A DNA stretch of 64,000 bases from Candidatus Saccharimonadales bacterium (GCA_040903985.1 JBBDUI010000002.1:599633-663632), one strand, 5' to 3'; numbered from the stretch's first letter, positions 2,730 to 21,407 are shown. Notes: generated from the sequence alone by a model not told the origin. Translations and numbers: made by a program.

Positions 2730-4232
2730 CTAATAGTGGCTAGCCTCTGGGGCTAGGAGCAGAGCCTCGGGCAGAGAATGTGGAAAAGTTATTGTAGATA
2801 GTTGTACGACACTTGTTGAGTAGGGTGTGAAGTACAGCTTGCCGTTAGGAGCTGCACACGCCCCTGAATTACTGATCCCAGAGCCGCTATAGATCTCCTC
2901 GACTTCTCCGGTAATCAAGTCACAAGCCACAAAGGCTGCCGGGACCGCGCTGCGATAGAAGTAGAGTCGTCCATCGTGCCCTAGCGCACCTGATCGGAAT
3001 ACCGCAGTTGTGGCGGGATGGACGAACTCTGCAGTCTGAGTCCACGGGTCAATACGAATATACCCCAGAGTCGCTGCAGTTGAAGAAGAGGGAAACAAAT
3101 ACACTGCACCATCAGGGCCAACACACCCGCCCACCCACTGACGGTTCGATTCCCCTTGAGCTCGGTCAAGCCCATAGTTTGTCTGCCAGGCTTCTTCAGT
3201 CTCGGGATCAATAACCAAGATGCCGTCCAGCGTATTTTGCAGACCATATGGAGCACAGTAGATCAACCCGTCAGGACCGAGCACTCCACCATGATATTTG
3301 AAGGACGCAGGCATATCTAGGCCCGGATCCCACCGCTTGGCGGTCCCTGCCACAGTGTCGATAATCAAGATATCGGTAGCGTTATACGGGATGCCCACAA
3401 TCTTGCCGGTAGCTGTTACTGCTGACCCATACCACTTGCCAGTGCCCGATAGGTCAAGGCCAAAGTTCTCAAGAGTAGCGGTGTTATCAGAAGGGTTAAT
3501 CACCAAGGAGAACTCACTGCTAGAGGGCATAGAGTAGACCTTGCCATCCAGGCCTAGTTGACCGCCCATCCATTTTGTGGAATCTGACATATCTAGTCCG
3601 AAATTTTCGAGAGTTGCCGTGTCGTTTGTCGAATCCACAACGATTACATTGTCGAAATTGCGAGGAAGCATATAGATCCGGCCATCAGGCGTAAGTACGC
3701 CACCACCCTCACATCGCTGACCAAAGGAGACCAAGCCTAGACCGTAGTCATTCATTGTAGCTACAGCAGAGGCTCCCTGTCGACGCAGGCCATGAACGTG
3801 TTGCTTCAGCAGGGAGACATAAGGCCCTTCATCTACCGTGGCAGAGAGAGGGGCCTTATCATCCAGTGCACTCTGGAGCCCGGAGACGGCGGCTATAGTA
3901 TGTACGCTACTGCCACTTGCATGATCGGAGAGTTCACTATCGGTGTAGCTCTCAGCTGTAGCTTCAGCTGCCGCTTGGGCCGCACCCACTAGACTGTCAA
4001 CGTAGGTCTTAGTTACGGCGTCTTGGGGGTCTTCTGGATCGGCTAGTCCGAGAATGCGGTTACTACTAAGTAATAACGGTCCAGTTAGAGTGCCGCCAGA
4101 TAAGCCAAGCTTACTGTCGATGTCACTACTGCGCTTTAGGCTACCGTCTGAATTCAGCTCGACACTCAAGAACTCGTTGAGAATATCACCCCAAACACCT
4201 TTATCCGAGCCAGGTATAGGTAGTCGAGCCAT
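2730..4232 (-). CDS. Tail-fibre-like protein (500 aa) with a C-terminal beta-propeller-like repeat domain.
   Basis: MARLPIPGSDKGVWGDILNEFL leader and GGTLTGPL...DAVTKTYVDSL collar. C-terminal half has about 6-7 repeats of approximately 47 aa with a G-x-L-x-P-D-G-x-I/V-Y-x-x-P pattern. Confidence 0.7.
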   Translation of the reverse strand: MARLPIPGSDKGVWGDILNEFLSVELNSDGSLKRSSDIDSKLGLSGGTLTGPLLLSSNRILGLADPEDPQDAVTKTYVDSLVGAAQAAAEATAESYTDSELSDHASGSSVHTIAAVSGLQSALDDKAPLSATVDEGPYVSLLKQHVHGLRRQGASAVATMNDYGLGLVSFGQRCEGGGVLTPDGRIYMLPRNFDNVIVVDSTNDTATLENFGLDMSDSTKWMGGQLGLDGKVYSMPSSSEFSLVINPSDNTATLENFGLDLSGTGKWYGSAVTATGKIVGIPYNATDILIIDTVAGTAKRWDPGLDMPASFKYHGGVLGPDGLIYCAPYGLQNTLDGILVIDPETEEAWQTNYGLDRAQGESNRQWVGGCVGPDGAVYLFPSSSTAATLGYIRIDPWTQTAEFVHPATTAVFRSGALGHDGRLYFYRSAVPAAFVACDLITGEVEEIYSGSGISNSGACAAPNGKLYFTPYSTSVVQLSTITFPHSLPEALLLAPEASHY

Positions 4233-7989: not shown

Positions 7990-8065
7990 GCGGGTGTAGC
8001 TCAGTTGATAGAGCGCGTCCTTGCCAAGGACGAGGCCACGAGTTTGAGTCTCGTCACCCGCACCA
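7990..8065 (+). tRNA. tRNA-Gly (anticodon GCC).
   Basis: Acceptor GCGGGTG/CACCCGC. Anticodon arm CGTCC-TTGCCAA-GGACG. T-arm ACGAG-TTTGAGT-CTCGT. CCA is encoded. Confidence 0.85.
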
Positions 8066-9580
8066 AAGTTGAGTTTTAGCGCCGTCAGGCGCTTTTTCTT
8101 TTTCCTCAATTACCAAGTTAAAAGGGTAATTCACGGTATATGACAAGTTTTTATCGTTCAGTTTAAGGTTAGAAACTAGGAATCCTAAGAGCTTGGAACG
8201 CTGCCCCTCATCTGCAAGCTGAAACAGCTCTGAAACTCGACTTACTAAATCTAACAGATATGAAGCGGTTACTAAGAAGTCCTTATTCCCTCTGGTTAGA
8301 ACATTTAGCCTATCATTGAGCTGTTGCTGTCTATTTGTTAATGTCTCTACAATTTTATCGTGTTGTTCTGGTGATATTTTTTCATCTACTAGTTTTTCAA
8401 ACCACATTTCAATTTTTTTGTCGATTGAATCATATTCCTCTCGAACTGATAGTAACGACTGTGAGTAATATTTTTGTTGGTCGTCGTGGTTATCTTTTAG
8501 TTCTTTAATAACTTTGTTTAATAGCTTTTCCGGAATATTTATCCTTTTTACAAGAGCTTCCATAGAGCCTAGTACGAGCGATTCTGCGGTGTTGGGGTTG
8601 CTACACTTAGAATTTGCACACTTGAGGTACACCCAACGTTTACACTGGAACGGGGAAATAGTACGACCACACTTACCGCAGCTTAGAATATCGCTAAAAT
8701 TGAAGTTTAGACTATCCCATTTGGTTTTCATTGATTTGCGCTTGTCTTTAATGAGCTGACACCTATTAAACAAGGCTCGGTCTATTAATGGTGCGTAATT
8801 ATGAGGGTAATCTTTTCCTTTCTGAGTCATCATTCCGTAATAAAACTTATTATTAATTATAGCTTCGACAGCCCCTTTGGATAGGGTAGTTTTACCAGTT
8901 TTACTGCTCGTAAAACCAGCTTTTGCTAATTCTTTAGCGATAAGGCTGTACGGCATTCCTATTGCCCTTAGCTCAAACGCTTTTACAATGTAATGCGCTC
9001 TTTGCTCATCGACCACAATATCTTTTAATGGCTTGTTGGGATTACTAGTAGGTATAGATATGTTTTGATATCCTATTGGCGCCCTGTGAACCCATATACC
9101 ATCATTTAACATCTGTTCAAAACGACGCTTTACATTGTCTCGGCTTGAATCGGAATAGTACTTAGCAAGCAGCATTCCTATACCAAGCCTGAATAAGTCT
9201 GTGGCTGGCGAACTAGATGATATGAATAAATTGTCTGATGGAAAATGTAGTTCTATTTTATCTTTTTCCACGAGCTGTCCCATTATTCTCACTTCTCTCT
9301 GTGAGGCGTCACGAGTAAAACGGTCTATTTTATCAAAGACAATTATCGCCTGTTCATTCAAAGACTGGATTTCATCTTCAATCAAAGAAGCGAATTTTTG
9401 CCTGGCGTCCTTGTAGGCACTTTCATCGAACTCATGGTATCGCCATTCTTTGTCTTTATAGTTCAAAGTTCTAGCATAGTTTTCAAGCCGTTGCTTCTGT
9501 GCGGGTAACGCTTTACGTTGCTGCACGTCCGATACCCTAGCGATTAATAGAATTGGTTTTTTATTGGTAGTAGCATTCAT
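8054..9580 (-). CDS. Large serine recombinase (integrase). Its stop codon overlaps the tRNA-Gly 3' end.
   Basis: N-terminal resolvase domain (ILLIARVSD catalytic Ser). Recombinase domain. C-terminal zinc ribbon CGKCGRTISPFQC...CANSKC. 508 aa. Confidence 0.85.
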   Translation of the reverse strand: MNATTNKKPILLIARVSDVQQRKALPAQKQRLENYARTLNYKDKEWRYHEFDESAYKDARQKFASLIEDEIQSLNEQAIIVFDKIDRFTRDASQREVRIMGQLVEKDKIELHFPSDNLFISSSSPATDLFRLGIGMLLAKYYSDSSRDNVKRRFEQMLNDGIWVHRAPIGYQNISIPTSNPNKPLKDIVVDEQRAHYIVKAFELRAIGMPYSLIAKELAKAGFTSSKTGKTTLSKGAVEAIINNKFYYGMMTQKGKDYPHNYAPLIDRALFNRCQLIKDKRKSMKTKWDSLNFNFSDILSCGKCGRTISPFQCKRWVYLKCANSKCSNPNTAESLVLGSMEALVKRINIPEKLLNKVIKELKDNHDDQQKYYSQSLLSVREEYDSIDKKIEMWFEKLVDEKISPEQHDKIVETLTNRQQQLNDRLNVLTRGNKDFLVTASYLLDLVSRVSELFQLADEGQRSKLLGFLVSNLKLNDKNLSYTVNYPFNLVIEEKEKAPDGAKTQLWCG

Positions 9581-9747
9581 GATTATATCCTTTACAAATA
9601 TATTATATTGTTATTTAGTAGTATTTTCTATCGTTTTAGCTTTAGCCTTTTGAGCTAGGTCTATTTGAATGAGTACATCTAGAAATCCTGCAAGGTTCTT
9701 TAAGTCTTTAGGAGTTTCTGTAGATGGATTGTTGGGTTGTTTGGGGG

Positions 9748-10275
9748 TTACCATTTGAAACCCCCGTAATGTGTCGAGAAAATATCCGCAATATTATTCT
9801 CAGTATTTTTTAATTTTGGTCTTTTTAGAACTTCATATTCTTTACTGGTCACTATTGAAGCAGGTACACTCCTCAATTTGTTCTGGTAATCTCCTTGTTT
9901 TCGAGGTAGCTGTGTACAAACTTTTTGGTGTTCGTACAGTTTTATGACACAAGGTATTAGGTCGTATGTGTTAGAAGTTCCTCGCTTATGTCTGCGTTTA
10001 ACGAACTGTTTTTCTTCCAGTTTTCTCAATCGTCTTTGAACGGTTGAATAACCTTTGTGAGAGAACTTGCATAGCCGAGTAATTGACGGGTATACCCGAC
10101 TATTGTGGCTGAACCAAAATGTTAGCAAGTGTATCAGTGTTAATGTCTCACCGTCTGTTAGCCCAAGATGACCCTGGCAAGCTAACAGTAAGTTTGGTAC
10201 CTGAGTGAAGTTAAACTCCTCTATTTCAGGTGACCATTTCTCTGAAAAACCGTATTCCTTGTTATTGGTTTTCAT
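9748..10275 (-). CDS. Winged-helix DNA-binding protein (replication-initiator or regulator-like), island-borne.
   Basis: FTQVPNLLLAC...LTDGETLTLIHLLTF...GYSTVQRRLRKLEEKQFVKR resembles wHTH replication or regulatory proteins of mobile elements. Confidence 0.4.
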   Translation of the reverse strand: MKTNNKEYGFSEKWSPEIEEFNFTQVPNLLLACQGHLGLTDGETLTLIHLLTFWFSHNSRVYPSITRLCKFSHKGYSTVQRRLRKLEEKQFVKRRHKRGTSNTYDLIPCVIKLYEHQKVCTQLPRKQGDYQNKLRSVPASIVTSKEYEVLKRPKLKNTENNIADIFSTHYGGFKW

Positions 10276-10425
10276 CGTATTTTCCTTTGCGATGAAGCCA
10301 GCCCAACGGAACGGTTGTTATTGGTGTTGGGTGGCTTCGTTGCCGTTCCAAACACCACTTTAGACATTAAAAAAGGAGCTGTAATAAAGCTCCTAAATTA
10401 CTCGATTTTAGTCGGTTTTAACTTC

Positions 10426-11283
10426 TTAGGTTGGTAATATTTCTCGGTTTGTTACGGTTTCGTCACGGTTAGATTTTAGCCATTTTTCGAACCACTCAAG
10501 TTGTTCTCCGCTTATCTCTTTCCAAGGGGTGAACCTTATTGTTTTCTGTGTAGTTCTTTCAAAAAATATCTTCTTTAACTCTCTATTGAAGTGGCAGTTT
10601 CTAACAAGTTCACTCAAATCGGTTTTCGTTTTACAGCCTTCAACTTTTTCTTGTATCTCGTGAATGCTTATCGGTCTATCATGATTTTTAAGAATATAAC
10701 GCATGAAGTTATACGGTGGGCTGTCGTATCTGAGTGGCTTGCCAAGTATTACATTTGCCCCTTCGATTAAATCAATACTTGCATACCTAAGTCCGACAGT
10801 TATTAAGTTATTTCGTAAATCAATAAAAATAATTTCTGACCTGTTTTTCTTGGTTTGGGTAGATTTATGTTTTTTATCAGTAAGGACGCTGTCGTGGTAC
10901 TGGTATTTTTCCAAATCTTTCTTTCTAGCTTTGTTTCTCACTGACTCAAAATTGTCCAGAATATTAACTTTATAATTTCTCAAAGACTTCATTTTTCCAA
11001 AAAGATAGTGATAGTCTACGTCAAGAATATCTGCCTTAAACGTTGGGTTGTTCAATGATATAGATCCATCATCTTCTAACTTTTTATTTGGCTTGGTGTA
11101 GGAGTACTTAATACATTCATAATCATCTTGTAATGCGTCTAGAATATATTTCTGGTCTTCAAGTCGTACACCCGCAACGTCCAAGTCCTCTGAGCTGAAA
11201 GATACCTTGTTACCCGATAATGATTCTTGCAGGAACCTATCAATCAGGTTGATTGCGATTAATATTTTTTCACGACCAGTCAT
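10426..11283 (-). CDS. Hypothetical protein (285 aa), island-borne. Possibly Abi-like.
   Basis: ORF only. AT-rich codon usage matches the island. No motif recognised. Confidence 0.35.
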   Translation of the reverse strand: MTGREKILIAINLIDRFLQESLSGNKVSFSSEDLDVAGVRLEDQKYILDALQDDYECIKYSYTKPNKKLEDDGSISLNNPTFKADILDVDYHYLFGKMKSLRNYKVNILDNFESVRNKARKKDLEKYQYHDSVLTDKKHKSTQTKKNRSEIIFIDLRNNLITVGLRYASIDLIEGANVILGKPLRYDSPPYNFMRYILKNHDRPISIHEIQEKVEGCKTKTDLSELVRNCHFNRELKKIFFERTTQKTIRFTPWKEISGEQLEWFEKWLKSNRDETVTNREILPT

Positions 11284-11349
11284 TAGTGTAAATTATACTC
11301 TATAATCCCATTCCTCACTGTTCCGCTCTTAGTTTTTGAATTTTTATTA

Positions 11350-11841
11350 CTAATGAAAACTAGTCGTGTAATGTACGAAAACCACTCGTTTGAGTGATGA
11401 GTTTGGGTGTCTGTCTGCAAAGTCTTCAACAGCTTTTTGAGCTATCATAATCACGTCTTCGTATGGATTGCCGTGTAAGCCTGAGCCTAACGCAGGAAAA
11501 GCCATGGACTCTACACCATAGTCATCTGCAAGTTCTAACGAAGTATAAAAGCACTTATAGAGTATCTTTGGCTCTTTACCTTTATGGTAGCCGTATATAG
11601 GCGCAACTGTGTGTATGACGTATTGAGCTGGTAAGTCGTAGGCTTCGGTAATCTTTGCTTCGCCATAATCACAGCCACCAAGTTCTTTACAGGCATTTGC
11701 TAGTTCGGGTCCTGCGATTGAATGGATTTTACTGTCTACACCACCGCCAGGAATGAGCTGAGTGTTGGCTGCATTCACGATAATATCTGCATGGAGTTTT
11801 GTTATATCCCAATTCATTTCTTCTAGTCTTAATGTACGCAT
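11350..11841 (-). CDS. Stand-alone macro domain protein (ADP-ribose binding or hydrolase).
   Basis: IVNAANTQLIPGGGVDSKIHSIAGPEL and GLHGNPYE motifs are canonical macro-domain signatures. Confidence 0.8.
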   Translation of the reverse strand: MRTLRLEEMNWDITKLHADIIVNAANTQLIPGGGVDSKIHSIAGPELANACKELGGCDYGEAKITEAYDLPAQYVIHTVAPIYGYHKGKEPKILYKCFYTSLELADDYGVESMAFPALGSGLHGNPYEDVIMIAQKAVEDFADRHPNSSLKRVVFVHYTTSFH

Positions 11842-11842
11842 T

Positions 11843-12085
11843 CTAGTATTCGTTCCTCATGGCATTAATAAAATCTAGTAATGCTGGTTTACGGTTCATG
11901 CCATATTTTTTGTTGAGTTCTTTAGTTTTGGCGATAGTTGCTTCGTTAATACGATATATTACTGGTTGAGCGAGCTGTTTGGCAGTTTCTCTATCTATTT
12001 CGCCCGTCCTATATTTGTGTTGAATAGTAGCGATATCAGCTCTGTTTTTGACTGCTTGCTCAATGTTCTTTTCCATACTTCGCAT
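11843..12085 (-). CDS. Small hypothetical protein (80 aa) ending 1 nt upstream of the macro gene start. Possible partner (toxin or regulator).
   Basis: ORF with 1-nt spacing to the macro gene. No motif. Confidence 0.35.
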   Translation of the reverse strand: MRSMEKNIEQAVKNRADIATIQHKYRTGEIDRETAKQLAQPVIYRINEATIAKTKELNKKYGMNRKPALLDFINAMRNEY

Positions 12086-12212
12086 TCTGTATAGAAAATT
12101 AGAGGAATGCGAGCCGTAAAGTAGCCTTTCTGAGCTATTCTCAGCCTCTCTACGCTGTGTTTAGTGCAGATTAATAACTATGGACTATAAACAGAGGTGT
12201 TTATAGCGTACA

Positions 12213-15200
12213 ATGTTGCATAATATGGCTAGTCTATTTGGTAAAAACAAACTTCGTGATATAGCGACAAAACTACAAACTTCTGACTTAGAAGATAAAA
12301 TTGCAATCGTTAAAACTTGGCACAATGATTATCACAAAGGTAGCTTAAAAGCAGATAAAGAAACTTCCCGCGAGCAAGCCTACAATCATGACTTTTTCAT
12401 AAAGATTTTAGGTTATAAAGAAAAACCTACAGTGCCGTATAGCTTTGAGCCAAAAGCTACTACTGATAAAGGTCAACTCCCTGACGCTGTTCTTAGCCAC
12501 ACTGACGTAACACAAGACATCAAGAATATTGCAGCTGTAGTGGAATTAAAGGGTGCAAGTATTGAGTTAGACAGACCACAACGGCGTGAGGGCAACATGA
12601 GTCCTGTGCAACAGGGGTTCAAGTACAAGACTCAGTATAGAAACTGTCCATTTGTGGTTGTCAGTAACTTTTGGGAGTTCAGGCTATACCACGACAATCA
12701 ACTTGATTATGAGCTATGGACACTCGATGACTTAGTTGACCCTGATGACGACTATCTCAAGTTCAAGACTTTCTACACACTTCTCCACAGTGATAACCTC
12801 ACAACACCAAAGGGAGCAAGCAAGACAGAGGGCTGGCTCAGTGATATACGTTATGAGCAGGAAGAAATCGGAAAGAAATTCTACAAGATGTACCGAGAAG
12901 CTCGTCTCGATCTGCTAAGAGACATTTACAGGCACAATCAAACTGTACGTTCAGATATTGATATGGGTATAGAAAAAGCCCAAAAGATTATTGACCGCAT
13001 AGTATTTGCCTGTTTCGCAGAGGACCGAGGCTTGCTTCCAGACAATACCTTGCAACGAGTTATTCAAGCTGCCGATAAGTCAGCGTTTGGTGGTTCGCTC
13101 TGGTCAACCTTCAAAGCGTTCTTTGAAGCAATTGATGTTGGTAGCGAAAAACTAGAAATACCAGACGGCTACAACGGTGGCTTATTTGCACATGATCCGA
13201 CTCTTAACGCCCTCAAAGTAAGTGATGAGCCACTACGAAAAGTAGCAAACATCAGTAACTACAACTTTGAGGAAGATTTAAGCGTTACGATTCTTGGCCA
13301 TATCTTTGAACAGTCTATTAGTGACCTAGAAGAAATCAAAAGCAAAGTCGAAGAAACTAAAAGCCTAGATTCTTTTCAGCAGTCACGAAGAAAAAAAGAC
13401 GGCATTTTCTATACTCCTGACTACATAGTGCGTTATATCGTTGATAATTCACTCGGTGCTTACTTGCGAGGTGAAGAAGAACGTCTAAAGTCTGAGTTTA
13501 AGCTCAAGGGCGACATTACAGACAAAAATTATGAAAAGAGAGAACGCCAAGCATACAGTAAGTATCAAGAATTTTTACAGAATGTAAAAGTCGTTGACCC
13601 TGCTTGTGGCTCAGGTGCATTTTTGGTTTATGTTTTTGATTATCTACTTGCAGAAAATAAACGTGTAGCAAGTATTCTCGGCAATAACTTGTTTAGTAGT
13701 GAGGATTACATAAAATCAATCCTACAGAACAATATTTATGGTGTTGACCTCAATGATGAATCGGTTGAGATTACTAAACTATCGCTTTGGCTTAAATCTG
13801 CTCAAAAAGGCAAAAAACTCACAACACTGGACAACAACATCAAATGTGGCAACAGTTTAATTGATGACTCGGAAGTTGCTGGCGATAAGGCGTTTGTGTG
13901 GGAAAAAGAATTTCCTGAAATCTTTGCCAAAGGTGGCTTTGATATAGTTGTCGGAAACCCCCCATGGGTGTTCACTCGTGAAGGTGGTTTTACGCAAGGC
14001 TCAAAAGATTTTATAAGTGCGTACATAGAAAATAAAAGCATTACTACTGAGTCCCGCGGTCTTAATATCCAAAAAGGCAAAATTAATCTATATGCAGTGT
14101 TTATCGCTAAGGGCTTAGACCTTCTTACGAAAGGCGGTGTACTTTCATACATTGTCCCGAATAGCATACTTCGAGCTACGCCTTATGAGGCGTTTCGAAA
14201 GTATTTACTCGATAACTTTGCCATTAAACAGATAGTTAATCTTGGAGCAGGTATATTCAGTGGAGTTACTGCTTCATCAGTCATATTGTCCATTGGAAGA
14301 AAAGAAGGCATATCTAGTAACTACGAAACAGAAATCATTATAGACATACAAAATCCAAATGAAAAATCTAGGCTAGAGCAAAATAACTTCTCGAACAACG
14401 CCAGTTACGTTTTTAACATACTCGCAAAAAAGGAAGAAGTAACGTTAACAACAAAAATACTATCAAATCATATCGTTCTAGGGAATATAGCAAAATTTAT
14501 TTCGCCAGGTATTGACGGTGATAAGTCTAAATATGTTAGTAAAGAACGGCTGAGTGATGATTATAAGCCATTATTATTTGGTAAATCATTCGGTAGGTAT
14601 ACGATCAATTTTGATAATAACTACATTCTCTATGACAGGTCAAAATTGAATAGGGCGAGAAAAGAAGAAATCTTCACATCAGACAAAATCATTATACAAA
14701 GAATAAGCGGCGGACTTAATCCTTTAAGATGTACGCTTGATGTAGAACAGTTCTATACGTTCAACTCAGTCAATAACGTCATACTTAAAGATGACAGTGG
14801 CGTTTCAGCTCATTATGTACTGGCGCTACTGAACTCAAGGCTGCTCAACTGGTACTATTCAACTAACTTCTCTAACAAATCAACTCTTACGGTAAATATA
14901 TCCAAGACTTTTCTTGAAAAGCTACCGATAGCAATAGGGTTAAAAGGTGAGCAGGACTCTTTAGAGAAATTGACCAAGAAAATACTTAGCTTATACAGTA
15001 AGCAAGACCAGGTTTTGACTCGTATAGAGAAAGTCATTTTGTCAGAATATCAAATAGAAAAATGGCCGACTAAACTCAATAAATGGTGGTTAATCGACTT
15101 TGCTACTTTCGTAAAAACACTCAAGATAACCCTCACGCTTTCACAAAAAGATGAATTGATGATACTTTACGAAAAATATCGCAAAGAGTTACTGGCGCTT

Positions 15201-15308
15201 GAGCAAGAAATCAAAAACACTGATTATGAAATCAACCAGTCTGTCTATTCACTGTACGGTTTAACAAATGAAGAAATTGAAATTATTGATAAGCAAACAA
15301 ATGAATAA
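12213..15308 (+). CDS. Type IIG/IIL single-chain restriction-modification enzyme (MmeI/Eco57I-like): N-terminal PD-(D/E)xK nuclease, gamma-class N6-adenine MTase, C-terminal TRD.
   Basis: N-terminal LPDAV...VVELKG (PD..ExK). MTase motif I VVDPACGSGAFLV and motif IV VVGNPPWVF. 1031 aa. Confidence 0.8.
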   Translation: MLHNMASLFGKNKLRDIATKLQTSDLEDKIAIVKTWHNDYHKGSLKADKETSREQAYNHDFFIKILGYKEKPTVPYSFEPKATTDKGQLPDAVLSHTDVTQDIKNIAAVVELKGASIELDRPQRREGNMSPVQQGFKYKTQYRNCPFVVVSNFWEFRLYHDNQLDYELWTLDDLVDPDDDYLKFKTFYTLLHSDNLTTPKGASKTEGWLSDIRYEQEEIGKKFYKMYREARLDLLRDIYRHNQTVRSDIDMGIEKAQKIIDRIVFACFAEDRGLLPDNTLQRVIQAADKSAFGGSLWSTFKAFFEAIDVGSEKLEIPDGYNGGLFAHDPTLNALKVSDEPLRKVANISNYNFEEDLSVTILGHIFEQSISDLEEIKSKVEETKSLDSFQQSRRKKDGIFYTPDYIVRYIVDNSLGAYLRGEEERLKSEFKLKGDITDKNYEKRERQAYSKYQEFLQNVKVVDPACGSGAFLVYVFDYLLAENKRVASILGNNLFSSEDYIKSILQNNIYGVDLNDESVEITKLSLWLKSAQKGKKLTTLDNNIKCGNSLIDDSEVAGDKAFVWEKEFPEIFAKGGFDIVVGNPPWVFTREGGFTQGSKDFISAYIENKSITTESRGLNIQKGKINLYAVFIAKGLDLLTKGGVLSYIVPNSILRATPYEAFRKYLLDNFAIKQIVNLGAGIFSGVTASSVILSIGRKEGISSNYETEIIIDIQNPNEKSRLEQNNFSNNASYVFNILAKKEEVTLTTKILSNHIVLGNIAKFISPGIDGDKSKYVSKERLSDDYKPLLFGKSFGRYTINFDNNYILYDRSKLNRARKEEIFTSDKIIIQRISGGLNPLRCTLDVEQFYTFNSVNNVILKDDSGVSAHYVLALLNSRLLNWYYSTNFSNKSTLTVNISKTFLEKLPIAIGLKGEQDSLEKLTKKILSLYSKQDQVLTRIEKVILSEYQIEKWPTKLNKWWLIDFATFVKTLKITLTLSQKDELMILYEKYRKELLALEQEIKNTDYEINQSVYSLYGLTNEEIEIIDKQTNE

Positions 15309-16023
15309 GGCCAACGATAACTTAAAAAACAATAAGCTAGACTGGACGGCTATAGTAACAAAAGCGAGCTTAGGCGCTGTCCCTATTGCAGGTAGTTTTT
15401 TAGCGGAGATTGTAGGAACGTTAATCCCTAATCAACGAATCGAAAGAATCGCTGAGTACGTTACAGAACTTAATAATAAGCTAGAGACTATCCCTGAACA
15501 TGTAGTAAAGAGATTAAGGAATAACGAAGAATTTATTGATTTAGTTGAGGAGAGTATTATTCGGGTCGCCCGCTCAATATCAGAAGAAAGACGCAAATAC
15601 ATTTTGAATATCGTTCAAAATGGTATTTCAGATGATGACTCAACTGTTAATAACGCAAAATATCTTTTGAGACTGTTATCAGAGATAAACGACAATGAAG
15701 TAATCTGGCTTCGTTATTTTCACGAGCGGACACTAAACGATAAGGCTCATTTTCAAGCATTGCACAAAAATATTCTTTCACCCGTACAAGTTGTACTAGG
15801 GTCTAGTAAAGAGGAACGCCAACGAGGGGCAGTTCAGGAAAGCTACAAAGAACATCTGGAACGACTTGGCTTAATTGAAAATAATATCAAAATGAACAAA
15901 GACCTTGGTGTGCCAGAATATGATACATTCACTAATAAGCCAAAGGTGTCATATACTCAGACCACAACATTGGGTAACATGCTCTTAGAGAAGATTGGTT
16001 TAATAAATAATGCAGCAAAATAG
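15301..16023 (+). CDS. Hypothetical protein (240 aa), translationally coupled to the RM gene (ATG 15301 overlaps RM stop 15306-15308).
   Basis: The track ORF 15268..16023 has an in-frame Met at 15301 that overlaps the RM stop. No motif recognised. Confidence 0.45.
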   Translation: MNKANDNLKNNKLDWTAIVTKASLGAVPIAGSFLAEIVGTLIPNQRIERIAEYVTELNNKLETIPEHVVKRLRNNEEFIDLVEESIIRVARSISEERRKYILNIVQNGISDDDSTVNNAKYLLRLLSEINDNEVIWLRYFHERTLNDKAHFQALHKNILSPVQVVLGSSKEERQRGAVQESYKEHLERLGLIENNIKMNKDLGVPEYDTFTNKPKVSYTQTTTLGNMLLEKIGLINNAAK

Positions 16024-16777
16024 TTTCAAACAAGTCGCATACGACATTCTAAAAGAAGCCGGTAACCCACTCCACAGTAAGGAGATTACTAAATTAGCAC
16101 TCCAACGAGGATTGCTAGTAACAGACGGCAAAACACCAGAGGCAACCATGAACGCTCAGCTAGTGGTTGATATTAATAAAAAAGGTATCAAATCAAAGTT
16201 TATCAAAACAGCCCCTTCAACATTTTATTTGAACGATAATTCTGAACCCATTGAAACAAAAGAAGAAATAGCAGAAGAAGCTAAAAAAGAAGCTGTCATC
16301 TCAAACGTATCATCAAAGCAGAAAGGCGATATTGCTGAGGCTAGAGTTGCCGAACTTATCACCCTCTACGGTGATAATGAGGTGTCTTGTTTCAAGCCAA
16401 TTTCCGATGACGAAGGAATTGACTTAATTGTAAAGCCTAAGGGGCAATTGAAATCACTGTATATTCAAATCAAGTCACGATTTGGCAGTAACCCAAGTGA
16501 AATATTCACCGCTACTGTCAAAGCCTCAGGGGTAGTAGAAAATTATTCAATGGTCTACTTGTTTTGCTACTTTGATACTTCAACTGGCGATATGTGGGAC
16601 TATGTATGGCTTGTCCCTGCACCAGACTTCAAACGGCTAGCGAACAATCTTCAAGGCGGTAGTTTGTATGGATTTGTAGCAGGTAGGAAAAAATCGGACA
16701 GTAATAAATGGGACCAGTATCTCATACACAAAACCGACTTATCGGAGTCAATAATTAATCAACTTTCAAGACTGTAG
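16010..16777 (+). CDS. HARE-HTH domain fused to a PD-(D/E)xK-type endonuclease domain (restriction-endonuclease-like).
   Basis: N-terminus FKQVAYDILKEAGNPLHSKEITKLALQRGL...KTPEATMNAQL matches the HARE-HTH pattern. C-terminus D-EGIDLIVKPK...IQIKSR is a D..E.D..K nuclease core. Confidence 0.55.
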   Translation: MQQNSFKQVAYDILKEAGNPLHSKEITKLALQRGLLVTDGKTPEATMNAQLVVDINKKGIKSKFIKTAPSTFYLNDNSEPIETKEEIAEEAKKEAVISNVSSKQKGDIAEARVAELITLYGDNEVSCFKPISDDEGIDLIVKPKGQLKSLYIQIKSRFGSNPSEIFTATVKASGVVENYSMVYLFCYFDTSTGDMWDYVWLVPAPDFKRLANNLQGGSLYGFVAGRKKSDSNKWDQYLIHKTDLSESIINQLSRL

Positions 16778-16788
16778 ATTTGTAAATT

Positions 16789-18261
16789 ATGTACCTGTCT
16801 AAATCTGACTTCCTAAAATATCAATGTTGTCCAAGTTATCTATGGCTATGGAAATACAAAAAAGAAGTCGTACCCGTAGATGATGAGGAAGCAATTAATC
16901 AGCGACTAGAACAAGGTAATGAAGTTGAGCGTTTTGCTCGTGGCTTATTTCCTAACGCTGTTCTGGTTGGTTCTTACGGTAAGAAGGCTCGTAACGAAAC
17001 CGAGAGGCTTGTAAGTAATGATGTGCAAGCAATATTCCAAGCTACTGTTTATACAGACAAAGAATTATTGGCAATGGCAGATATTATTGAATTTGATGAA
17101 GCCACGCAATCTTGGGATTTGTACGAAGTAAAATCTACCAACTCTGTTAAAAAAGAACATATATATGACCTTGCTTTTCAGCGAGTGGCATTTGAAGACG
17201 CTGGCTATAAAATTGGTAAGGTAATTGTCATTCATTTAGATAAAACTTACGTTCGCAAAACAGCAGTAGAGCCATCTGAACTTTTAACGCAAACCGATGT
17301 TACAGAAAAGGTTGAAAAAATACTACCAACAATACGGCAACAAGCCTATGACGCTATTGAAGTATTAAAACAAAACGATGAGCCAAAAAAGTGTAGTTGT
17401 AGACTTAAAACTCGTTCAGGACACTGCTCGACATTTAATTATCTTAATCCCGATATTCCTGAGTATTCTGTTTTTAATATTTCAAGAATAGGTGCTAAGA
17501 ATCTGGCAGTACTTGTAGATGGAGACATTCATAACGTACATGATGTACCAGAGGACATAAAACTTTCTATTGGTCAGAAAAATCAAGTACTGGTGGCTAG
17601 GAGTAAAGAGCCGATTATAAACAGGCCAGCTATTCAAGAATTGTTAAGCGAACTTGAATTTCCTCTTTATTTCCTAGACTACGAAACCGTTTCATCGGCC
17701 TTACCAATGTTTAATGGCTGTACACCATTCCAACAAATACCGTTCCAGTATTCTTTACACGTTCTGAGAGAGCCTGACGGCGAACTTGAGCATTATGAGT
17801 ATCTTGGGCGTGATAGCACCAATCCACCAATGCCAGAGCTACTCGCAAGCCTACAGAACAATATCGGAGATACAGGTAGCGTTATTGTTTGGTATAAAGT
17901 CTTTGAAACAGGACGCAACACAGAAATGGGTAAAGCATTCCCTGAATACGCGGAGTTCCTTGAGGGCATAAATAATAGAGTGTTTGATCTAATGGACATA
18001 TTCAGTAAACAGCATTATGTACACCACGATTTCAAAGGCAGTAGCTCAATCAAATATGTGTTACCAGTCCTTGTGCCTGAGTTCTCATACAAGGAAATGG
18101 ATATACAGAACGGATTAGTCGCTTCAATACGGTGGTATGACGCCGTTATGGGTGCAGTAGACGAAGAACAAGCCCAAAAGACTTACGAAGCACTCTTGAA
18201 GTACTGCTGTTTAGATACTTTGGCAATGGTTAAGATTTACGAATACTTAAAGAAACTATAA
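16789..18261 (+). CDS. Cas4-like / RecB-family PD-(D/E)xK nuclease with Fe-S cysteines, fused to a C-terminal domain of unknown function (DUF2779-like).
   Basis: N-terminal YQCCPSYLW. MADIIEFDE...LYEVKS (D..E.K). C-x-C-x8-C cluster CSCRLKTRSGHC. 490 aa. Confidence 0.55.
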   Translation: MYLSKSDFLKYQCCPSYLWLWKYKKEVVPVDDEEAINQRLEQGNEVERFARGLFPNAVLVGSYGKKARNETERLVSNDVQAIFQATVYTDKELLAMADIIEFDEATQSWDLYEVKSTNSVKKEHIYDLAFQRVAFEDAGYKIGKVIVIHLDKTYVRKTAVEPSELLTQTDVTEKVEKILPTIRQQAYDAIEVLKQNDEPKKCSCRLKTRSGHCSTFNYLNPDIPEYSVFNISRIGAKNLAVLVDGDIHNVHDVPEDIKLSIGQKNQVLVARSKEPIINRPAIQELLSELEFPLYFLDYETVSSALPMFNGCTPFQQIPFQYSLHVLREPDGELEHYEYLGRDSTNPPMPELLASLQNNIGDTGSVIVWYKVFETGRNTEMGKAFPEYAEFLEGINNRVFDLMDIFSKQHYVHHDFKGSSSIKYVLPVLVPEFSYKEMDIQNGLVASIRWYDAVMGAVDEEQAQKTYEALLKYCCLDTLAMVKIYEYLKKL

Positions 18262-18311
18262 GTTAAACGTAAGCAATATAGTTATCAACCAAACAACGAT
18301 ACAATAATCTT

Positions 18312-19787
18312 ATGGTTGCAAATCAACAAAAAGGAAAACAACTAATAACTCTCAATGAGCATATTGGTGTACCTGTAGAAAAACTTGAAGAACTGGGTAT
18401 CCTAAACGCAATAATCGGCATAGATACTAAATTATTCATTGACCCTAAGTTGATAAATGTTACTGATATACCTGAACTTGATAATGTTGTAGAGGACATT
18501 CGTGCCTATGTTCGTAAACTGATATCTGTAAATAATCAGGCAGCAAAATCCGAACGTATTAGACAGATTGCAATAAAGATGATTGCCATTGAAGAACCAA
18601 AAGGTCTATCAATCGGTTACGGAAACAGCAGGGATAGTGGTACTTCCATTTCAGAAAGTGTGGCAAGGAAATCACTGCAATCATTATCTGAAATGATTTC
18701 AATCGGTGTAGAAGACCTTGAAGTTATGGAAATGCTAGGACTGTTTATAAGCAGATTCGGAGCTGACAGCATTAGTGATTTAATATCACACATCATTTAT
18801 CCCCGACTTTGTGCGTATACCCAAAGAGTCTCAAAAGAACTTGGTATAAAGGTTAAGGTATTTGAAATAAACGAAGCAAAGTATAACCTACCTGCACACC
18901 CCAAAAAAGATACTCCGCTTATTTTTGTTCCATTAGTGATATTGAGCGAACTTCCATTGGCGACTAGTTGGGAAGAAATTGCAGTTGCCGCCCAGTTAAA
19001 CGAAAAATGCAGACAAGCCTTTAACGACTTAGTCGGAGCCGATATTGCAAATTACGCAAAAAAGATTAAGAAGAACCCAGCACTTGTTACTGGTTCAATT
19101 GAAGCAATGAAAACCCTTATAGCCATCTATGACGAAGCTGTTGTAAGACCATATGATAGACAAAAAGACCCCGCTGGATACGTTCGTCTAAGCAAATTCG
19201 CGGCACAACTTAACGACAAGCTGCAATCACCAAACACGGTTATTAAAAATACAAACGAAATGGTTGAGTTTATTGACGGACAAGTAATAGACCAGTTTCG
19301 TCGTAATATTGAAAAACTAGGAGCTAACACCTTGCTGTACCACCGAAAAGGTGAATCTCCTGATTATTTGAAGCCAGTCAGAGAAGACGCTGCACAGATT
19401 ATTTTCCATACAGCTGCTGACCACATCTGTCAAAATAACGACATTTTGGTAAGTAGGGAGCCAGCGGTTGGTAATGGTGCTGTGGATTTCACAATTGGTC
19501 AAGGTTCTAGCAATAAGGCGGTCGTTGAAATTAAAAAATCAAACAATAAGAACCTGATTGACGGATATAATTTACAATTACAAGAGTATGTGGAACGAGA
19601 GAAAGCGGCTATCGCATTCTATGTAGTTGTATTAGTAACTCAAGCAAGTGTGGATAACAAAGATTCACAGTTGAACGAACTTAAAAAAATGTATGCTTCT
19701 AAATTACGCAAAAAAGAACAATGCCCAAGATTAGTAATTATTAATGGTCTTGAACAATTAAGCCCAAGTAAGATGAGGAGCAATTAA
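18312..19787 (+). CDS. Hypothetical 491-aa protein with a C-terminal PD-(D/E)xK-like motif.
   Basis: GNGAVDFTIGQGSSNKAVVEIKKS (D-x13-E-x-K) near the C-terminus. The rest is unrecognised. Confidence 0.4.
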   Translation: MVANQQKGKQLITLNEHIGVPVEKLEELGILNAIIGIDTKLFIDPKLINVTDIPELDNVVEDIRAYVRKLISVNNQAAKSERIRQIAIKMIAIEEPKGLSIGYGNSRDSGTSISESVARKSLQSLSEMISIGVEDLEVMEMLGLFISRFGADSISDLISHIIYPRLCAYTQRVSKELGIKVKVFEINEAKYNLPAHPKKDTPLIFVPLVILSELPLATSWEEIAVAAQLNEKCRQAFNDLVGADIANYAKKIKKNPALVTGSIEAMKTLIAIYDEAVVRPYDRQKDPAGYVRLSKFAAQLNDKLQSPNTVIKNTNEMVEFIDGQVIDQFRRNIEKLGANTLLYHRKGESPDYLKPVREDAAQIIFHTAADHICQNNDILVSREPAVGNGAVDFTIGQGSSNKAVVEIKKSNNKNLIDGYNLQLQEYVEREKAAIAFYVVVLVTQASVDNKDSQLNELKKMYASKLRKKEQCPRLVIINGLEQLSPSKMRSN

Positions 19788-20039
19788 CTAAGTAATCAAA
19801 TCTGCCGACAGATTAAATTGCCTTACTAAATCCTGTAACTTATAATTGTCTACATTGCCTTGGTTAGCGGTTAGAAATACACCAGCTATCCGGCACCAAA
19901 TGCTTAATTATCAAACTATGAACAAACCCTGACTACTTTATTGAAGCTGAGTATGGACAATAACCCTAGACTGCACAGTTGCGCCATCAACCATAACCGC
20001 TGTAGAGTATGGATATAACAAACGGTAGTAAAACATTCT

Positions 20040-21407
20040 ATGCCCCGCCTACCAATCCCCGGATCAGACGAAGGAACATGGGGTGATATCCTCAACGAGT
20101 TCCTCAGCGTCGAACTAGCTAGTGATGGCTCTCTCAAACGCGGTACCGAGCTAACCCAGAAGCTCAACCGTAGTGGCGACACCATGGGCGGCAATCTCAG
20201 TCTTGGTGGAAACCGTATCATCGGGTTAGCCGACCCCACCAACGCTACTGATGCGGCTACTAAGAACTATGTAGATACAGCTGATATAGCATCCCACACC
20301 ACCACCCACCAATCCGGCGGAACTGACGAACTGAACGTCGATGGCCTCTCCGGTGAATTAGCCGACCCTCAAATACCGAAAGGCCACTCACTGGGTGGTA
20401 TAGAACACAGTGCTACCACCCTGGCTGCCCTCAACGCCAAGCTCAGTGACGCCACCCTTGATGATGCCAGTGCTACTCGTACCCCAACTGAGCACGGTAA
20501 TGAAGCCCATTCCGCTACCTTCATCACGGCTGCCGAAGCCCCTGTTCAGTCCGTCAACGGTAACACCGGTATTGTTTCACTCGATGCCAGTGATGTAGGA
20601 GCTGATCCCTCCGGTACCGCTACCACAGCTGTTACTGATCATGAGGCAGCAGCAGATGCACATTCAGCTACCAGCATTGAGTTCGATCCGACCGGCCTTT
20701 CATACACTACAGCGATAGATGTCCAACAAGCCATCACCGAGCATGATCAGGCGATTGGTGATGGTACGTCGGGGCCGCCGCAGGTAGACACGTTCACAGC
20801 GTCGGGGACATGGGTCAAGCCGACCGGAGCGAAGCTTGTCGTTGCTCATGTCGTTGCTGCCGGTGGGGGAGGATCAGAACAGGATGGGTTCGGCGACGGT
20901 GGCGGAGGTGGGGGCGGGTCGCTACTCATTGTTGTATCCGCTGATGAACTTGATGCGACCGAGATAGTCACGGTCGGCTCAGGAGGGGCTGGTGCAACGG
21001 CCGGTGCATCGGCGGGTAATGGTGGCAGCAGCGCTTTCGCAGGCTACAGTGTCACCGGCGGGGGAGGATCGCGTAACCCTACAGGAAACAGCAAAGGTGG
21101 CGGGCACGACGGAGGTGCCGGCAGCTCTGGTGGAGCCCCCGTCGGTGCAGCTTTTGGTGGTGGTGGGGGGGGCCGGAGTTCGGGCTCGGCAATCCCTGGG
21201 GCTGGTTCGGTCTACGGCGGCGGCGGCGGTAGTACAAATGGAGCAGCCGGTGGGCCTTCGACGTTCGCTGGTGCAGGTGGTGTTGGGTCGACTGGCAGCG
21301 GAACGGGCGGTGCGGGCGGCATTCCCGGCGGCGGCGGCGGCGGGTCGCTGACTGGAACGGGCGGAGCAGGTGCCCGTGGCGAGGTTCGTATTACAACCTA
21401 CTTCTGA
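20040..21407 (+). CDS. Tail-fibre-like protein (455 aa) with a C-terminal Gly-rich module.
   Basis: MPRLPIPGSDEGTWGDILNEFLSVE leader. GDTMGGNLSL...TNATDAATKNYVDT collar. FTASGTWVKPTGAKLVVAHVVAAGGGG followed by about 200 aa of Gly-rich sequence ending GGAGARGEVRITTYF. Confidence 0.7.
   Translation: MPRLPIPGSDEGTWGDILNEFLSVELASDGSLKRGTELTQKLNRSGDTMGGNLSLGGNRIIGLADPTNATDAATKNYVDTADIASHTTTHQSGGTDELNVDGLSGELADPQIPKGHSLGGIEHSATTLAALNAKLSDATLDDASATRTPTEHGNEAHSATFITAAEAPVQSVNGNTGIVSLDASDVGADPSGTATTAVTDHEAAADAHSATSIEFDPTGLSYTTAIDVQQAITEHDQAIGDGTSGPPQVDTFTASGTWVKPTGAKLVVAHVVAAGGGGSEQDGFGDGGGGGGGSLLIVVSADELDATEIVTVGSGGAGATAGASAGNGGSSAFAGYSVTGGGGSRNPTGNSKGGGHDGGAGSSGGAPVGAAFGGGGGGRSSGSAIPGAGSVYGGGGGSTNGAAGGPSTFAGAGGVGSTGSGTGGAGGIPGGGGGGSLTGTGGAGARGEVRITTYF
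21165..21172 (+). repeat. G8 homopolymeric tract inside the Gly-rich coding region of 20040..21407.
   Basis: Read directly (tggtGGGGGGGGcc). Confidence 0.8.

Follow-up and report, generated by a model that had tools for sequence, protein, structure and literature searches.

A type IIG restriction-modification operon on a Saccharimonadales integrative island and its DUF2779 protein, a probable portable ancillary nuclease

Fusions of UvrD to a Cas4-like nuclease adjoin type III Mod/Res and Dcm/Vsr genes, and have been proposed to act as ancillary components in several defence pathways (PMC5704561). Solo-Cas4 proteins are over-represented in Candidate Phyla Radiation (CPR) and DPANN genomes, where they are sometimes found beside restriction-modification (RM) genes (Hudaiberdiev et al. 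2017, PMC5704561). The DUF2779 family combines a Cas4-like PD-(D/E)xK nuclease with a DEDD-type 3′-5′ exonuclease in one polypeptide (PMC13621843, PMC3985635); the family still awaits functional characterisation, and its member in the minimal cell JCVI-syn3.0 is quasi-essential (PMC13621843). Here we analyse a DUF2779 gene present in a 64-kb stretch of DNA (the window) from a Candidatus Saccharimonadales genome, a member of the CPR. This gene, referred to as C (16789..18261, + strand), lies in a run of + strand genes that starts with a single-chain type IIG (MmeI/Eco57I-like) RM enzyme (12213..15308), the operon's first gene, and continues with genes A (15301..16023), B (16010..16777), C itself and D (18312..19787). 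The ensemble is probably a composite defence operon, carried on a tRNA-Gly serine-recombinase island, with C as a portable ancillary nuclease that would finish off cleaved DNA. Its conserved frame would be formed by two genes, that of the type IIG RM enzyme as the 5′-terminal and C as the 3′-terminal member, with A and B as interchangeable inserts, while D would be an unrelated, widely distributed nuclease gene placed behind the operon.

The evidence that carries this reading comes from the position of C in other genomes. A search with C gave 17 distinct, informative contexts of close homologues (64–92% identity, apparently all from Saccharimonadia), and in all 17 a defence system that targets DNA lies next to C. 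Related loci in other genomes that were compared with the window are designated by L-numbers. Five contexts contain a type IIG RM enzyme homologous to that of the window (the window itself, L171/172, L082-84, L092 and L181/182) and another five a type III RM system with Mod and Res (L094, L096, L098, L101 and L184/185). A Dcm-type (type II) RM system is present in two (L093 and L187, the latter with RE_Eco47II and divergently transcribed), Shango in three (L088-90, L091 and L183; SngA 7e-12, SngB 1.9e-153, SngC 2.6e-198), and a Mokosh-like helicase of 1557 aa in the remaining two (L085-87 and L186; MkoA 4.8e-44, at a gap of ∼525 nt). In 14 of these contexts, C and the upstream gene point the same way and are no more than 25 nt apart, five loci showing overlaps of 1–4 nt. 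Since the DNA homology between loci begins within ∼10 nt of the start codon of C and ends at its stop codon, C can be considered a discrete cassette. The C protein accompanying the Mokosh-like helicase of L085 is 87% identical to that of the window, and that accompanying the Mokosh-like helicase of L186 is 68% identical; the C protein found behind Shango in L183 is closest to those of the type III group, indicating that C identity does not simply track the partner system.

The five type IIG loci reveal which parts of the operon are constant. Homologues of the RM enzyme (59–63% identical overall) precede C in L171, L082 and L092, and also in L181 as judged by DNA homology. The interval between the RM gene and C holds no gene in L092, a 39%-identical homologue of B with both its domains in L082-84, A plus B in the window, a homologue of A (78% identical) plus an unrelated 174-aa protein in L171/172, and an unrelated 262-aa protein in L181/182. 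The 174-aa (L171, 8346-8870) and 262-aa (L181, 7213-8001) proteins showed no similarity to A or B and matched no Pfam or PADLOC family. The position after C varies as well, being occupied by D in the window, an HNH gene in L088, DUF4145 in L085, a Zn-ribbon protein plus DUF6119 in L092, and in L171 by an unrelated 317-aa gene (10459-11412) whose product showed no similarity to D and matched no Pfam or PADLOC family. In L093, an open reading frame (ORF) related to the nuclease part of B alone lies downstream of C. The original prediction, made from the window only, had delimited a module running from A to D that excluded the RM gene; the pair that recurs consists of C and the RM gene that had been left outside.

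The RM enzyme of the window matches Eco57I (9.5e-42, 143 bits) and TaqI_C (3.6e-23, 82 bits) in Pfam, with N6_Mtase and MmeI_Mtase also above their cut-offs and MmeI_N borderline (26.6 bits versus a cut-off of 27). It matches REase_MTase_IIG in PADLOC (4.6e-118), and a D...ELK motif is visible in its sequence. A single chain thus combines an N-terminal PD-(D/E)xK nuclease with a gamma-class N6-adenine methyltransferase and, at the C-terminus, a specificity domain, the architecture of a type IIG enzyme, as had been predicted. The DNA similarity among the RM genes of the different loci spans from ∼25 nt upstream of the start codon to the beginning of the specificity domain, and the protein similarity disappears in the C-terminal specificity region. 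When compared by eye with the enzyme of L171 (4415-7621), that of the window is near-identical up to about residue 550 and fully divergent in the C-terminal target-recognition part, the overall identity being 59%. This pattern suggests that specificity domains have been swapped within one RM lineage.

The C protein matches DUF2779 (PF11074) with 6.5e-42 (143.2 bits versus a threshold of 23.3), the full profile (1-126) aligning with residues 294-420, in agreement with the Cas4-like/DUF2779 iron-sulphur (Fe-S) nuclease originally proposed. Its N-terminal part is a Cas4-like, four-Cys PD-(D/E)xK nuclease and its C-terminal part a DEDDy 3′-5′ exonuclease. Residues D98, E113, K115, Q131, D297, E299, E373, D400, Y472 and D476 are invariant among 76 C homologues, a set in which Cys14 and Cys213 hardly vary; when the comparison is restricted to the 16 close homologues, Cys14, Cys202, Cys204 and Cys213 are all invariant. 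From this conservation, the two active sites and the ligands of the Fe-S cluster would seem to be intact. D98, E113, K115 and Q131 belong to the D...ExK...QxxxY core of RecB-type nucleases which, together with four Cys residues, characterises the Cas4 family, the Fe-S cluster itself being predicted from the sequence. D297, E299, E373, D400 and D476 provide the acidic residues of a DEDD(y) exonuclease, with Y472 located four residues before D476; the Exo motifs were assigned following PMC13621843 and PMC3985635, and the third ligand is either E373 or D400. The match to the PADLOC Cas4 profile is weak (3.6e-6), and the PADLOC 2023 collection contains no model for the DUF2779 family beyond such weak Cas4 matches; that to NCBIfam UU173_fam is partial (78 bits versus a cut-off of 225), and a sequence search against the PDB gave no match. 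Neither Cas1 nor Cas2 was found among the called genes or the Pfam-scanned neighbours of the C loci, a survey that did not include a dedicated Cas profile search. C would therefore be, at most, a solo, fused Cas4-like nuclease.

The combination of these genes suggests a division of labour. The RM enzyme would cut unmethylated incoming DNA, providing both the self/non-self discrimination and the DNA ends. C would load on these ends and degrade both strands, the Cas4/RecB-type Fe-S domain acting as a 5′-3′ nuclease and the DEDDy domain as a 3′-5′ exonuclease. Neither a specificity domain nor a helicase can be recognised in C, which would thus be suited to degrading or resecting the ends that a partner makes. 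In other bacteria, DNA is processed after restriction by a core enzyme, RecBCD or AddAB; C would take over that role here, as a finishing or end-processing (resection) step. The C cassette would do the same job for the type III RM, Dcm-type RM, Shango and Mokosh-like systems of related genomes; Shango is not known to have been assigned a nuclease step. B would be a modification-dependent (type IV-like) nuclease directed against phages whose modified DNA gets past the RM enzyme, A would provide an abortive-infection (Abi) backstop, and D would constitute a separate line of defence.

Several considerations weigh against this reading. The finishing role is deduced from domain content and gene context, and gene overlap, being common in compact CPR genomes, is no proof of functional coupling. 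The sample was obtained by searching with C, so it describes the neighbours of C rather than the fraction of such systems that lack it, and is not a census. The coupling is not universal either, given the gap of ∼525 nt in the Mokosh-like contexts and the divergent RM genes of L187, and the tight association of C with defence systems may so far be limited to the Saccharimonadia clade. Finally, the membership of A in the Abi_alpha family is sub-threshold. A wider proposal can be advanced tentatively, namely that C is a system-agnostic finisher in Saccharimonadia, and perhaps in other minimal-genome bacteria lacking RecBCD/AddAB, that serves at least five DNA-targeting systems of different mechanism and either destroys marked or nicked DNA or repairs self-inflicted breaks.

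An alternative explanation is that the locus contains five independent defence genes that are simply clustered, in which case C would act against phages on its own, functionally independent of the gene upstream. Defence genes generally cluster in islands, and distant DUF2779 proteins (30–40% identity, from other phyla) have no constant partner: a co-directional upstream gene lies within 25 nt in 16 of 48 cases, and the neighbours are heterogeneous and partly housekeeping (WYL, HD, BolA, one MmeI, one BrxA, KAP NTPase). D and A behave likewise, and the DUF2779 homologue of JCVI-syn3.0 is quasi-essential (PMC13621843). What makes this explanation unlikely is that C is co-directional and within 25 nt of its upstream gene, behind a restriction or helicase system, in 14 of 17 contexts, while for D the corresponding figure is about 14 of 76. 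Moreover, a solitary, non-specific dual exonuclease would have no obvious cue to tell self from non-self, which a partner that makes the ends would supply.

Somewhat less likely still is that C belongs to the backbone of a family of Saccharimonadia integrative islands, where it might serve the element itself as an exonuclease of recombination or replication, and that the defence systems are cargo captured at a hotspot just upstream of it. C is conserved at 64–92%, above the recombinase (45–54%), the RM enzyme (59–63%) and B (39%); it usually lies at the island end far from the recombinase, the cargo upstream changes while C stays, and mobile elements often carry Cas4-like nucleases (PMC5704561). 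However, RM...C units with no recombinase within 8–10 kb, surrounded by housekeeping genes, are found in L171 (directly after pheT) and L181, and C is missing from other serine-recombinase islands of this general type (L081 and L173-L180). Together, these two observations favour a link of C with the defence system over one with the island backbone. In addition, C is translationally coupled (overlaps of 1–4 nt) to at least six unrelated upstream families, something that a simple hotspot would not yield repeatedly, and all 17 of its partners target DNA, none being a toxin-antitoxin system or a membrane Abi protein.

Some of the contexts of C showed features worth recording in their own right. 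In L088-L090 (4780-11482) and L183 (2752-9503), the DUF2779 gene comes directly behind a complete Shango system (SngA/B/C), which it overlaps by 4 nt; a small HNH gene is added after it in L088. This would give a four- or five-gene Shango variant. Candidate defence cargo was present downstream of C in L092 (7200-9946), consisting of the 373-aa Zn-ribbon protein and DUF6119 (3e-122), and in L082 (10689-13305), where a convergent 668-aa GHKL/HATPase_c protein gene and a 183-aa gene are found. In L187 (1-4274), type IV secretion/pilin genes, a reverse transcriptase fragment and a bAvd gene lie beside the C homologue, a possible diversity-generating retroelement on a conjugative element.

Returning to the composite operon of the window, the boundaries of its genes corresponded to those originally described. 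A, B, C and D are four + strand ORFs; an ORF check of the sequence reproduced every coordinate, overlap and gap. The start codon of A (ATG, 15301) lies within the last codons of the RM gene (ATGAATAA), whose stop codon is at 15306-15308, so that the two overlap by 8 nt. The overlap between A and B amounts to 14 nt, and gaps of 11 nt and 50 nt separate B from C and C from D, respectively; no terminator-like hairpins were detected on the + strand between these genes. Many homologues were found for each of A, B, C and D, and they are therefore real genes rather than chance ORFs. The three PD-(D/E)xK cores announced for B, C and D are present, with their catalytic residues conserved among homologues, and the view that the genes are of a defence type, on an integrative island and directly behind the RM enzyme, also held. 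No named multi-gene system was matched when the proteins were scanned against Pfam, PADLOC and NCBIfam, again as stated at the outset. The BREX, DISARM, Zorya and Druantia systems were considered specifically, and A, B, C and D matched none of them in PADLOC, Pfam, NCBIfam or PHROGs; only the methyltransferase part of the RM enzyme resembles PglX/DrmMI, with a score of 135 bits against NCBIfam BREX_1_MTaseX, whose cut-off is 500.

The original prediction went further and regarded A to D as one candidate system, for which co-occurrence of the four genes outside this genome had been set beforehand as a test; the set of four was not found together elsewhere. One new, obligate multi-protein system composed of A to D, with or without the RM enzyme, is therefore very improbable: the overlapping or abutting ORFs with no internal terminators, the recurrence of an RM-A-x-C arrangement in one further lineage (L171/172, with A 78% and C 87% identical) and the lack of assignment of A to D to named systems by PADLOC, Pfam and NCBIfam speak for it, but the co-occurrence data already contradict it, since D has no A, B or C beside it across 80 loci, A stands on its own in two or more further contexts, the place of B is left empty or taken by unrelated genes, so that the RM-C interval varies, and the gene after C differs from locus to locus. 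As a single conserved four-gene system, A to D are not supported by the comparison.

The behaviour of D is particularly informative in this respect. Its relatives amounted to 192 loci confirmed by tblastn, with one genome per species, and the neighbourhoods were taken from the 80 best; the loci listed come from many bacterial phyla and one archaeon. In these 80 of the 192, tblastn and phmmer found no relative of A, B or C near D, and clustering gave no conserved neighbour, no neighbour family being present in more than nine of the 80 loci. According to a tally from the table of neighbours, about 14 of 76 upstream neighbours are co-directional at a gap of ≤25 nt, orientation being mixed. A Pfam scan found DNA methyltransferases in 6 of 126 immediate neighbours of D. 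The others form a mixture rich in defence and toxin genes (e.g. Zeta toxin, RES, Vsr, a Schlafen-type helicase, Fic). Genes of ∼320–340 aa recur downstream of D, and are mutually unrelated (HNH, PDC-S08, TIR-like and unassigned).

D had been described, together with A, as having no recognisable motifs outside the nuclease core; this did not hold for either protein. D matches phrog_30194 over its full length and contains the Pfam domains DUF8371 and DUF8370, that is, an N-terminal domain followed by a C-terminal BamHI/BstYI-like PD-(D/E)xK nuclease. Residues D392, E406 and K408 are invariant in 20 diverse homologues. The N-terminal domain is found in 858 clusters at 50% identity, the proteins being almost always of ∼470–490 aa, and has no structural relative in the PDB; no match to D was found in viral contigs. 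In residues 1-340 (18312-19331), D38, D44, E95, D152 and D156 are invariant, within DTKLFIDP, EPKGLSIGYG and FGxDSISD motifs. These acidic residues could form a second catalytic or a ligand-binding site. As far as the sequence comparisons go, D is a widespread solitary nuclease of fixed architecture that occupies variable, defence-rich neighbourhoods.

Two classifications of D were considered and rejected. It does not qualify as a classical type II restriction endonuclease, as it has no adjacent cognate DNA methyltransferase. Residues 26-215 (the N-terminal ∼190 residues) match the PADLOC profile PDC-M36A (E-value 1.4e-11; 1.4e-11 to 3.9e-15 for D and its homologues); the match covers part of the profile only, PDC systems are unvalidated candidates, and the PDC-M36 partner was never found beside D or its homologues, so D was not assigned to PDC-M36. 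Our literature search found no mention of PDC-M36 or of DUF8370/DUF8371. A separate arrangement was noted in L008, L009 and L010 (∼8550-12590; Nomurabacteria/Paceibacterota), where a D homologue follows a type I hsdM gene (470–484 aa, N6_Mtase/HsdM_N) and precedes a gene of 355–378 aa that probably belongs to the Methylase_S (hsdS) family. The gaps on either side of D are of 0–6 nt, or there is an 11-nt overlap, which embeds D in a type I RM operon.

The product of A, 240 aa long in the NCBI call that begins at 15301 (a longer ORF begins at 15268), matches a single family, Abi_alpha (PF14337, DUF4393), with an E-value of 7e-5 and 23.3 bits, under the 29-bit gathering threshold. The same family, and no other, was matched by 12 of 18 diverse members of the A family (E<0.01). 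A is thus best treated as a divergent relative of Abi_alpha. A structural model (pLDDT, the predicted local distance difference test score, 79.5) showed bundled helices and, at one end, a small part resembling a winged helix; no fold match obtained with it was informative. In addition to the homologue located between the RM gene and C in L171/172, homologues 69–76% identical to A were found at the edge of the recombinase islands L173-L180, where there is neither an RM gene nor C. Such stand-alone homologues are consistent with an autonomous function. The gene prrC is an Abi gene embedded in a type I RM locus, and the 8-nt overlap of A with the RM stop codon recalls, by analogy, Abi genes in RM loci of this kind.

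B contains, as predicted, an N-terminal HARE-HTH domain (1.4e-18; 67.5 bits versus a cut-off of 25.9), followed by a Mrr-like PD-(D/Q)xK nuclease. The matches of the latter are sub-threshold (PDDEXK_5 3.6e-4, 21 bits versus 26.1; Mrr_cat 0.05, 14 bits versus 21); the GIDLIV...IQIKS segment, which forms a D...QxK core, is also present in the 39%-identical homologue of L082. The assignment of B as a HARE-HTH-nuclease fusion relies, for its nuclease half, on these sub-threshold matches and on the conserved core. B had no match in viral contigs, nor in the PDB by sequence search. The HARE-HTH domain has been suggested to read DNA modification (PMC11037411), and the architecture indicates that B is probably a type IV (modification-dependent) enzyme.

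The island that carries the operon extends from ∼8060 to 19900, as judged by its low guanine-plus-cytosine (GC) content (35–40% over the 8–20 kb region versus ∼50% outside). Its left end is the integration site, a tRNA-Gly(GCC) gene (7990..8065, +) detected with ARAGORN; blastn showed the identical tRNA-Gly sequence at the edge of the related islands L082, L092 and L101 from other metagenomes. A large serine recombinase gene (8054..9580, –; Pfam Resolvase 5.6e-13, Recombinase 4.2e-11) abuts this tRNA gene, and its product shares 45–54% identity with its counterparts in islands L092, L101 and L083. At the other end, a candidate attachment core, GCACCAAA, was located by eye at 19893..19900; it equals the 3′-end of the tRNA-Gly at 8060-8067 and coincides with the GC jump at ∼20 kb. 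The match of an 8-mer is only suggestive of the right-end core, and a repeat search found no long att repeats, just this 8-nt core having been spotted by eye.

Between the recombinase and the operon, on the – strand, the island carries genes for a HTH_36/DnaD_N-like protein (Pfam; 9748-10275), a 285-aa protein of no recognised family with a homologue in islands L082/L083 (10426-11283) and a Macro-domain protein (Pfam, 1.3e-35; 11350-11841), preceded by an abutting 80-aa ORF (11843-12085). The last two (11350-12085, –) may form a small ADP-ribose-related toxin/antitoxin or anti-defence pair. Outside the island, four paralogues flank it on both sides (599-1174, 1721-2458 and 2730-4232, all –, and 20040-21407, +). 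Their N-termini are almost the same (M[AP]RLPIPGSD.G.WGDILNE[FY]L) and their C-termini diverge, with a Gly_rich_2 domain in the paralogue at 20040; they look like a diversifying family of surface or secreted proteins.

The four-gene set is in itself not a new system; what the comparison offers is that the tight position of C behind five kinds of defence system turns DUF2779, a family of thousands of members with no known function, into the subject of a concrete, testable hypothesis. Should it be true, it would give a first function to this large family, the quasi-essential member of JCVI-syn3.0 included, C would supply the missing nuclease step of Shango, and a further accessory nuclease shared by unrelated immune systems would join UvrD-Cas4. 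CPR bacteria may package C in this way because their core genomes have been stripped of end-processing machinery. The stretch from the RM gene to C, with its changing content, recalls the genes that are embedded in RM operons elsewhere, such as prrC in a type I locus, and lends itself to searches for new small defence genes, those of the 174-aa and 262-aa proteins being examples.

With regard to known systems, C resembles RecBCD/AddAB in having a RecB-family Fe-S nuclease domain that would act at double-strand ends, with restricted DNA being destroyed or self-inflicted breaks resected; in contrast to them, it consists of one protein of 490 aa that lacks a helicase motor, and is encoded in a defence operon rather than in the core genome. 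A is similar in size to Abi-alpha (EF2833 of Enterococcus faecalis prophage 6), a single-gene abortive-infection protein that causes premature lysis (PMC6356687), matches this Pfam family alone and can likewise stand alone in mobile elements; it differs in scoring 23 bits versus the 29 needed, and in being translationally coupled to an RM gene. B has exactly the architecture of the fusions of HARE-HTH to restriction endonuclease domains recorded in Pfam (PF05066) and attributed to Aravind and Iyer 2012 as cited in PMC11037411, and is found in an RM context, although its nuclease domain is predicted from sequence and lies under the Pfam thresholds. MMSYN1_0389 of JCVI-syn3.0 (PMC13621843) belongs to the same Pfam family as C and shares with it the two-nuclease architecture and the conserved D-E-K and DEDDy residues, but the Mycoplasma protein is longer, lacks two of the four Cys and, being quasi-essential, looks housekeeping-like, whereas C keeps the four Cys and is island-borne. 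No tie of DUF2779 to RM or defence was found in the literature on the domain architecture of the family, nor in the titles of other papers naming DUF2779. The closest precedent is provided by the UvrD-Cas4-like fusions (PMC5704561): like them, C joins a Cas4/RecB-type nuclease to a second DNA-processing domain, lies beside several restriction systems and belongs to the small-genome CPR/DPANN setting in which such proteins are over-represented. C differs in that it has no helicase, its second domain being a DEDDy exonuclease (Pfam DUF2779, not pfam12705), and in that its partners also include type IIG RM enzymes, Shango and Mokosh-like helicases. The logic is thus already known from UvrD-Cas4, and what appears to be new here is the Cas4-like-DEDDy (DUF2779) fusion and the broader set of partners with which it is found.

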